A stretch of 287 nucleotides of DNA from Escherichia coli. Lineage in GTDB: Bacteria; Pseudomonadota; Gammaproteobacteria; Enterobacterales; Enterobacteriaceae. The position numbers and the translations under genes are program-made. The stretch lies in assembly GCF_003334255.1 (NCBI RefSeq), contig NZ_QOWU01000273.1; one strand, written 5' to 3'. Positions 1-287 of this stretch are shown here, one piece after another (position 1 is the first letter of the stretch; every line of letters starts with the position of its first letter). The notes under the pieces are model-generated. The model worked only from the letters and a program-made list of their open reading frames with translations, was not told the DNA's origin and did no database searches.

Positions 1-248
1 CGGTTTTTGTGTTGCGTGCTGATGTGGTTAGAATGTTGCGAATTAATATCACCTGGCAACTGGTGATTGTCTGCATAGTCAACGGTGAAGGAGAAAGCCC
101 CGTATGTGGTGACGCTGCGGGCAGCCTGTTTACAGGCGCGGCGGTAATAGTCGTGCCAGTTGTTCAGGCGGGAAGCCAGCAGGGGATCCACCGCCCACAT
201 CCAGTTAAAGAAGTCCTGAATATCTGAAAGTCCCTTAACGCTCTTCAT
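1..248 (-). CDS. Hypothetical protein, N-terminal 82 codons (3' end outside the window). Translation: MKSVKGLSDIQDFFNWMWAVDPLLASRLNNWHDYYRRACKQAARSVTTYGAFSFTVDYADNHQLPGDINSQHSNHISTQHKN...
   Basis: Seen in sequence: reverse complement of 246..248 is ATG, followed by 81 further sense codons with no stop through position 3 (positions 1-2 are the first two bases of the next codon). GGAGG sits 5 nt upstream of the ATG. Codon choice is enterobacterial-like (CTG x3, CGC x4, AAC, GAC, TTC, ACC, and only one AGA/AGG/ATA/CTA-class rare codon), and by my hand count about 53 of 82 codons end in G or C against roughly 50% overall GC. The ORF was absent from the supplied track, presumably because it has no stop inside the window. 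Product unknown: no recognisable Walker, HTH, CxxC pair, signal peptide or transmembrane segment. The true start could lie upstream, since the frame stays open to position 287. Confidence 0.75.
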   Translation of the reverse strand, partial: MKSVKGLSDIQDFFNWMWAVDPLLASRLNNWHDYYRRACKQAARSVTTYGAFSFTVDYADNHQLPGDINSQHSNHISTQHKN

Positions 249-253
249 GAGAA

Positions 254-258
254 CCTCC
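254..258 (-). promoter_or_regulatory. Shine-Dalgarno / ribosome-binding site (GGAGG) for the minus-strand CDS
   Basis: Seen in sequence: plus-strand cctcc at 254..258 reads GGAGG on the minus strand; the context is CCGGAGGTTCTCATG, with a 5-nt spacer (TTCTC) to the ATG at complement 246..248. This is a perfect core match to the anti-SD complement at acceptable, slightly short spacing. Caveat: if the ORF continues in-frame from upstream, this is just codons CCG-GAG-GTT. Confidence 0.5.
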
Positions 259-287
259 GGTAACAGACGTGCGGAAGCCTCCCGCGC

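Follow-up and report, generated by a model that had tools for sequence, protein, structure and literature searches.

The ATG at positions 248..246 on the minus strand of the window (the whole stretch of 287 nucleotides analyzed here) is the genuine start of a conserved early prophage gene of the phrog_3237 family and is served by a Shine-Dalgarno (SD) sequence of its own. The best overall explanation of the locus combines this start with a bridging role for a long overlapping open reading frame (ORF) and with the window copy as the remnant of a duplication, and we put its probability at roughly 80%. With this, the start codon is fixed, the two alternatives that had made it seem ambiguous (translational coupling to an upstream gene through an ATGA overlap, and an in-frame N-terminal extension) are excluded, and the locus is recognized as a truncated duplicate that current RefSeq annotation handles poorly. 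The ATG itself is an ordinary start, and its context, a long ORF free of stops, is mildly interesting. The principle known from gene eta of phage P4 appears to operate in P2-like phages of the helper type too, and the locus offers a directly testable example in which selection would act on the process of translation and not on the protein.

Matches to the window DNA are carried by 65 of 5,426 complete E. coli genomes. Identity to E. coli prophages is 99 to 100%, and the top match, E. coli SCU-172, shares 286 of the 287 bases, the one mismatch being the first base of the window. When phage and plasmid records were searched with the window, no high-identity match was returned, and the only partial matches were two to chromids. 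The locus belongs to the early region of a P2-like prophage of the P88/Xuanwuvirus type that is integrated adjoining dmsA, and the nearest sequenced phages are P88 and other Xuanwuvirus members within the Peduoviridae. The prophage genes run in the order integrase, repressor-like HTH protein, DUF4761, DUF4754, exonuclease, Dam methylase, DUF4406 and others, followed farther along by a 138-aa hypothetical protein, a gpA-type replication endonuclease and, later, portal and terminase genes. The window ORF shares its first 57 codons with the gene for the 138-aa protein. This phrog_3237-family gene is 137 to 138 aa long when intact and is placed directly upstream of the replication endonuclease gene, and a true ATGA overlap does occur at the 3' end of its intact copy, where the TGA overlaps the ATG of gpA (L001 9281-9284).

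The assignment of the start is based on initiation signals and on the N-termini of homologues. The start region on the minus strand reads ...ACCGGAGGTTCTC ATG AAG AGC GTT AAG... (in a longer read, GCGCGGGAGGCTTCCGCACGTCTGTTACCGGAGGTTCTC-ATG-AAG-AGC-GTT-AAG...), and an SD-like purine run is located 5 to 9 nt ahead of the ATG in all 37 distinct spacers. Similarly, all 33 homologue protein clusters begin at the methionine of the window, with MK(S/N)VKGLSDIQDFF..., and distant relatives of the P88 gp15 type (21 to 29% identity) have N-termini at most 6 residues away from it. The first position of the phrog_3237 profile aligns to residue 7 of the protein. The intact copy matches this profile over residues 7-135 and profile positions 1-129 (E = 1.8e-50), and the chimera made by the window-type copy, described below, matches it over residues 7-57 (E = 3.4e-17).

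Beyond its family assignment, the protein has few relatives. The 138-aa protein and P88 gp15 share 21% identity in pairwise BLASTP (E = 5e-7), the sole source of this link, and when phage records were searched by tblastn with the 138-aa query, none matched at E <= 1e-5. No similarity to P4 ORF151 was detected, and an NCBIfam search returned nothing for the 138-aa protein, the 73-aa protein encoded upstream of it, the chimera or a short antisense ORF in the window. An AF2 model of the 138-aa protein has a pLDDT of 78; Foldseek searches with this model against PDB and BFVD produced no match at E <= 0.001, with weak DUF5405-like phage hits only.

Table 1. Features placed on the window, with the basis of each placement or a remark.
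Feature	Positions	Strand	Basis or remark
ATG start codon of the phrog_3237-family gene	246..248	-	Homologue starts, PHROG profile, no upstream in-frame start codon
Shine-Dalgarno GGAGG, 5-nt spacer TTCTC before the ATG	254..258	-	Read from the sequence
TGA of the ATGA tetranucleotide, unused as a stop in the window lineage	245..247	-	+1 frame closed 59-71 nt upstream
Truncated 5' copy of the phrog_3237-family gene, codons 1-57	78..248	-	Homologue alignment and DNA unit alignment
Novel joint of the 829-bp tandem duplication, between GTTGAC and TATGCAG	77..78	.	Repeat-unit alignment
First 77 nt of the next repeat unit, leader upstream of the isrK-like and C4 genes beyond the window	1..77	-	Unit alignment
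Long, eta-like third-frame ORF, last 16 codons and TAA (237..235)	235..285	-	Overlaps the gene start by 14 nt (ATGAAGAGCGTTAA)
3' arm of a hairpin (GCGGGAGGCTTC) in the spacer between the derepression gene and the phrog_3237-family gene	274..285	-	RNAalifold
64-aa ORF, PGAP hypothetical protein WP_162861635.1	33..227	+	Antisense to the conserved gene fragment, spans the duplication joint

The copy of the gene in the window is incomplete. Its alignment with homologues breaks right after ...FSFTVD, and the alignment of the two DNA repeat units breaks at the same point. The repeated unit comprises a leader, isrK, C4, a derepression gene, a spacer and the first 171 nt of the 138-aa gene; its length of 829 bp is defined by alignment, and the period is not visible to Tandem Repeats Finder. 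The remaining full-query matches to the window have a single copy of the locus, with 829 bp separating the counterparts of the two window halves. At the joint, the reading frame continues from codon 57 directly into the second unit's long ORF, and the resulting 280-aa chimera extends over the start of the intact gene as far as the canonical TAA, at +11 of that copy.

As the window copy is a duplication remnant, it is possible, though doubtful, that its ATG is the functionally irrelevant start of a pseudogene whose product, if made, would be junk. The gene is indeed cut after codon 57, at a joint that a joint-specific search detects in only 4 of the 5,426 complete E. coli genomes, and an intact copy is available 829 bp downstream. 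Against this, the SD, the ATG and the 171 nt of coding sequence are identical between the window-type and intact copies in L002, so that initiation should occur here as well. In addition, the uninterrupted run of 280 codons could serve as the translated bridge of the second unit, as the fusion supplies the long frame of that unit with an SD and an ATG. The fusion is suggestive only, because a joint has a one-in-three chance of being in frame anyway.

Upstream of the gene, each unit carries an immunity module that consists, in this order, of an isrK-family RNA with its intrinsic terminator, a C4 antisense RNA and an ORF of 73 to 76 aa. In both units of L001 and L002, the C4 RNA (RF01695) scores 80 to 84 bits against a gathering score of 45 and isrK (RF01394) scores 64 to 68 bits against a gathering score of 50. 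Both RNAs are outside the window, for which an Rfam search matched no family. The ribosome-binding site of the small ORF is within a target complementary to C4, and across loci the C4 loops vary in concert with both target sites. Co-varying loops and targets are the classical design of immunity specificity in P1 c4 and P4 CI. The 73-aa ORF of the derepression type is a real gene: its precomputed annotation is Pfam Derepression (PF25738), its product shares 32% identity with P4 epsilon over 50 aa in BLASTP (E = 9e-8), and its variable columns are distributed over the three codon positions as 21/26/42, with an excess at the third.

The stop codon of the derepression gene is located 68 nt upstream of the phrog_3237-family ATG. 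The sequence-only reading had proposed that the gene is a member of an operon whichever way its start was resolved, and this is borne out by a 68-nt spacer that contains neither promoter nor terminator. Its observation that the 39 nt upstream of the ATG lack a promoter can be widened, since a scan for promoter-like and terminator-like sites found none across all 287 nt of the window. A suspected plus-strand promoter in the window, TTGTGT-16-TAGAAT, failed the promoter scan and was dropped.

The ORF that does reach the start from upstream lies in the third frame, which is open for 619 to 1114 nt upstream of the ATG in all loci of the window lineage. In every locus, its frame is that found one base after the ATG of the derepression gene. 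It begins shortly after the preceding gene in the same orientation and reaches as far as the 138-aa gene start, crossing on its way a promoter-like site (TTGCCA-18-TACATT), isrK, a second promoter-like site, C4, the whole derepression gene and the spacer. Its start is found 5 to 18 nt past five different upstream genes. Where a co-directional gene is located upstream of the module, the ORF is about 206 aa long; in the window lineage, where the module is preceded by a divergently oriented membrane-protein gene (phrog_6315), it reaches 368 to 372 aa. In that lineage the position of the ATG that opens the long ORF elsewhere is occupied by ACG, so that a far-upstream ATG has to be invoked, a point against the bridging explanation. 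This ATG, preceded by a GGAG SD, lies 18 nt past the DUF4406 stop, and from it the ORF passes codon-aligned and antisense through the entire phrog_6315 gene.

At its other end, the long ORF differs between lineages. In P88-type phages, its stop codon forms an exact ATGA overlap with the start. The spacer between SD and ATG is 4 nt shorter in the window lineage than in P88-type phages, and as a consequence the ORF is there in the third frame and ends with a TAA at +11 to +13. The expectation that an upstream ORF overlaps the start is therefore correct in substance, with an overlap of 14 nt, and wrong as to the frame, which is the third and not the +1; the ATGA idea fits the sister P88-type lineage and not the window sequence. 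We considered whether the change between +1 and third frame could count as independent evidence of selection and rejected this, as it results from a single 4-nt indel within the last 10 nt before the ATG.

The extent of this ORF also clarifies how it has been annotated. Three phage records list it as a 205-aa CDS, named either "hypothetical protein" or "transcriptional regulator." The translated isrK/C4 region matches the N-terminal parts of ORFs labeled antirepressor, Rha or transcriptional regulator in lambdoid and Stx phages at 34 to 47% identity, and the part of the chimera derived from isrK/C4 hits PHROGs 821, 995 and 6928. To judge from these matches, the same frame may be open in many phage types, with which they are consistent. 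The PHROG hits of the chimera to "transcriptional regulator" families were set aside as an indication of a regulator protein, the matching part being the translated isrK/C4 region. Our analysis thus explains why pipelines disagree on such loci, with some reporting a 205-aa "transcriptional regulator/ash" CDS and others the RNAs and a small derepression gene.

The question posed by the prophage is whether its long frame is kept open by selection. In nine loci the long frame contains 0 stops, compared with 2 to 12 per frame in the five alternatives; for random sequence with matched dinucleotide composition, the probability that a given frame is open is about 0.014. A census of stops in 67 unique sequences from IMG/VR, GenBank phages and genomes gives a similar picture. 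Polymorphic stop sites in the RNA segment number 1 in the long frame and 15 and 12 in the other two frames, and in the segment of the derepression gene there are 0 in the long frame and 7 in the other non-coding frame. In locus L006, insertions of +1 and +2 nt restore the long frame. Furthermore, two versions of the phrog_6315 gene that have diverged at about half of their nucleotides are both devoid of TTA, CTA and TCA codons. Under synonymous recoding with the codon usage of the prophage itself, the probability of an open frame is 0.0014 and 0.0029 for these two versions, and the same test on the overlap with the derepression gene gives P = 0.006 to 0.07.

The amino acid sequence encoded by the long frame shows no such constraint. 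Over the derepression gene, it is codon position 2 of the long ORF that is most variable, which argues against constraint at the amino acid level. A Pfam search with the long ORF of L005 gave no hit even at E <= 10, a precomputed and "weak" Phage_ASH hit is all that is recorded for the ORF of L003, and BLASTP detected no similarity to the cI/eta ORF of P4 (E = 0.56). Comparison of these sequences indicates that the long frame is kept open by selection without a constraint on its amino acids, as with P4 eta. The frame is probably translated, with selection maintaining translation itself and not the product, a view we hold with reasonable confidence. Selection of the eta type is seemingly strong enough to shape the codon usage of both an antisense gene and an overlapping gene.

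A less favored explanation, which we consider unlikely, is that the gene start is driven independently by its SD and that the long ORF is untranslated and uncoupled from it, its openness being a by-product of constraints from RNA structure and neighboring genes. The missing amino acid constraint and Pfam hit would be expected in this case, and it could be added that the ORF contains an intrinsic terminator (that of isrK), that it is absent from the PGAP annotation, and that natural variants exist in which it has a stop (L084) or lacks the canonical ATG (two others). By-products of this type would not readily account for the stop census (1 versus 12 to 15, and 0 versus 7), for recoding probabilities of 0.0014 to 0.07 across independent segments, for the frame-restoring indels of L006, or for an ORF that is packed at both ends like a gene after each of five different upstream genes.

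If the long frame is translated, a function can be envisaged for it. Before transcripts of the early operon arrive at the 138-aa gene and gpA, they would have 0.6 to 1.1 kb of RNA-gene sequence to traverse that would not be translated otherwise. Ribosomes that translate the long ORF may shield these transcripts from Rho, from pairing with C4 and from premature termination. As they would stop 11 to 13 nt past the ATG, they could reinitiate at the start of the phrog_3237-family gene, with ribosomes thereby being delivered to this start and onward to gpA. Two routes to the ATG could thus coexist, direct initiation led by the SD and termination-reinitiation. For the prophage, we infer reinitiation at the ATG and an anti-terminating effect of the long ORF by analogy with P4. 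At even odds, in our estimation, the ORF may represent a translation-only frame, free of stops over 0.6 to 1.1 kb, on which ribosomes escort P2-like early transcripts through an RNA-immunity cassette to the replication gene. As part of such a reading, the antisense phrog_6315 gene would have been purged of TTA, CTA and TCA to permit the frame, and the in-frame fusion at the duplication joint would preserve the same property.

The two alternatives that had been raised for the start can be examined against sequence beyond the window edge. The motif that gave rise to them is real, as TCATGA on the minus strand contains the ATG at 248..246 and the TGA at 247..245, and both peptides that had been quoted are reproduced, RGRLPHVCYRRFS* in the +1 frame and AREASARLLPEVL-MKSV... 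in the frame of the ATG. The third frame (AGGFRTSVTGGSHEER*) is likewise open to the window edge, which makes three of three frames open over 13 codons, and the chance of 13 random sense codons in a row is about 0.5. Since all three frames are open there, the 39 open bases are uninformative. Each frame was therefore followed from the ATG in the upstream direction at ten loci (L001 and L002 with two copies each, L003, L004, and L005 to L008), and P88-type phage records were treated likewise. With the sequence extended in this way, the +1-frame coupling and the ATG-frame extension both fail. The SD (258..254) and the third-frame TAA (237..235) had both been overlooked in the sequence-only reading.

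It is extremely improbable that the TGA of the ATGA closes a conventional +1-frame gene that is translationally coupled to the start, even though the tetranucleotide is present and the sister P88-type lineage has a 205-aa ORF that ends at the equivalent TGA. The +1 frame meets a stop 59 to 71 nt upstream (L001, L002 and L005 to L008), which in loci matching the window is the TAA of the preceding 73-aa gene, and from there to the ATGA at most one weak alternative start (TTG) occurs, in some loci only. As this frame closes so near to the ATG and is almost devoid of start codons, no gene ends at the TGA and RGRLPHVCYRRFS is the end of no ORF. The ATG of the window thus shares the tetranucleotide with the classical 4-nt ATGA overlaps of bacterial and phage operons and differs from them in that no ORF reads into its TGA. 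That Met 248 is internal to a longer protein in the same frame can be dismissed with the same assurance, as the ATG frame, while open over the 13 codons in the window, is closed 75 to 171 nt upstream and in none of the 10 loci contains an ATG, GTG or TTG between that stop and Met 248, every called homologue starts at Met 248 and none extends upstream of it, GGAGG is at an ideal distance from the ATG, and what speaks for a longer product is variant L023, in which a 1-nt deletion in the spacer fuses the long ORF in frame to give a 340-aa ORF.

When the start and the long ORF are placed into the context of known systems, the prophage locus belongs with P4 eta-CI-epsilon, P1 immI and P88 gp14-gp16 as its closest counterparts. 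Passages of a published account of P4 (PMC10111431), which summarize Forti et al. (1999, J Bacteriol 181:5225), describe a CI immunity RNA that is encoded within the long gene eta, and a constitutive promoter inside eta whose transcripts terminate early to give CI. The same passages (PMC10111431) state that translation of full-length eta occurs only on transcripts from an upstream promoter and is coupled to the preceding gene, and that this translation averts termination and thereby permits expression of the genes downstream.

The P4 left operon (eta, with nested kil, then CI RNA and epsilon) resembles the prophage in having a C4/CI-type RNA and a seqA/isrK-type target inside a long ORF, and an epsilon-family derepression gene is present in the prophage too. 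In both cases, the long ORF begins upstream of an internal promoter, lies close behind the preceding gene and extends into the next start. The prophage ORF, starting 5 to 18 nt after the upstream gene, does so by 4 or 14 nt, and in the P4 record NC_001609 the cI/eta CDS, as annotated, shares 8 nt with the beginning of epsilon. There are also differences. The long ORF of the prophage has no detectable protein similarity to cI/eta, overlaps the whole epsilon-like gene out of frame to end at the following gene, and contains no evident kil nested in the same frame. In addition, the prophage is of the P2-like helper type with gpA and is not a satellite, and anti-termination is something we infer in its case.

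The immI region of P1/P7 (c4-icd-ant) is another system in which a C4 RNA is flanked by complementary targets, and the downstream target extends over the ribosome-binding site of a small ORF with further genes behind it. The small gene of the prophage is epsilon-like, however, and not icd, no Ant homologue follows it, and RF03163 (c4-a1b1) is below threshold in the prophage (20.5 versus 46.7). Similarly, in the isrK-orf45-anrP-isrJ region of Salmonella Gifsy-1 (PMC4825925), which was compared through Rfam matches, an isrK-family RNA and a terminator are located upstream of phage regulatory genes, although Gifsy-1 is a lambdoid phage with other downstream genes. The closest counterpart in a sequenced phage is P88 (NC_026014), where gp14 (derepression protein), gp15 and gp16 (replication endonuclease) have the same gene order and RNA module, the long ORF is present, and gp15 is a distant homologue of the window gene. 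P88 is distinguished by a spacer between SD and ATG that is 4 nt longer and by a true ATGA overlap, compared with the 14-nt overlap ending in TAA of the window lineage.

Current annotation of the window itself reflects the duplication in an indirect way. RefSeq leaves the truncated gene fragment without annotation and instead annotates a 64-aa ORF antisense to it (WP_162861635.1), which has no PHROG or NCBIfam match. Because this ORF spans the duplication joint, it is possible only in carriers of the duplication, and it is probably spurious.

The spacer between the derepression gene and the phrog_3237-family gene contains a hairpin, the 5' arm of which is beyond the window edge. As a single-sequence fold it is not unusually stable (z = -1.75). 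The hairpin is conserved in both lineages, and RNAalifold on 14 distinct spacers predicts a stem of 11 pairs, with GC at pair 16-44 in 7 sequences and AU at this pair in 6.

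The 829-bp tandem duplication comprises the isrK-C4-derepression gene cassette and 171 nt from the start of the gene that follows, which encodes a 138-aa protein. Among 5,426 complete E. coli genomes, just 4 contain its joint, GTTGAC|TATGCAG. In strain G1/2 (NZ_CP060083.1 3383871-3383928, DNA search match H57), similarity extends just 13 nt past this joint before the sequences diverge, and this early end of the match suggests an additional rearrangement of the duplicated locus.

In the P2-like prophage of strain STEC2018-607, the units (L001 7381-8209 and 8210-9038) are 91% identical, and the C4 loops and the two target sites complementary to them are precisely where the units differ. 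Because loops and targets differ between the units, this prophage carries two RNA-immunity modules with different specificities. Unlike STEC2018-607, strain SCU-172 has two identical C4 genes.

Features of the duplicated region and its flanks (L001, STEC2018-607 prophage; L002, SCU-172 prophage; L021 and L027, further homologous loci)
Feature	Position in window	Position in prophage loci	Remark
Tandem duplication	joint at 77|78	L002 8001-9658; L001 7381-9038	
64-aa hypothetical protein WP_162861635.1	33-227 (+)	L001 8060-8254 (-)	RefSeq/PGAP annotation
Conserved hairpin	274-285 (-), plus about 25 nt past the window edge	L002 8598-8636	spacer between derepression gene and next gene
phrog_6315 membrane-protein gene		L001 6901-7368 (-)	equivalent in L021/L027

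The eta-like long open reading frame (ORF) that runs through isrK, C4, and the derepression gene varies among homologous loci. A 1-nt deletion in L023 (IMGVR_UViG_3300018479_000124) makes it continuous with the reading frame of the 138-aa gene, giving 340 aa, while L084 has a stop codon inside the frame and the versions in L029 and L063 are without a canonical ATG. Two strongly diverged versions of the phrog_6315 gene are both free of TTA, CTA, and TCA codons (P = 0.0014 and 0.0029). The absence of these codons keeps open the long ORF, which runs antisense to this gene in codon-aligned register; the PGAP start lengthens the N-terminus of this gene so that it reaches about 19 codons inside the repeat unit. 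When translated, the isrK/C4 RNA region (L005 3394-4014; phage records H32-H52) matches phrog_821, 995, and 6928, all labeled "transcriptional regulator/repressor," and also resembles N-terminal parts of "antirepressor/Rha" coding sequences from Stx and other lambdoid phages. As translated RNA-gene sequence matches them, these families are built partly on such sequence or on eta-like ORFs hosting the RNAs.

The ORF of WP_162861635.1, which crosses the duplication joint antisense to the truncated gene and for which a search found no family match, is probably spurious. The sense-strand fragment of the truncated gene carries no RefSeq/PGAP annotation.

The hairpin-bearing spacer measures 68 to 72 nt, and a second GGGAGG is located in the 3' arm of the hairpin. 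Between lineages, both bases of one pair change: 7 sequences have GC and 6 have AU.

At its 3' end, the intact 138-aa gene has a genuine ATGA overlap (L001 9281-9284) between its own TGA and the ATG of the gene encoding the gpA-type replication endonuclease; in L005-type loci, 5 nt separate the two genes instead. At the prophage edge in SCU-172, an Rfam STnc130 sRNA (126 bits, L002 1040-1174, plus strand) sits in the interval between dmsA and the integrase of the prophage.
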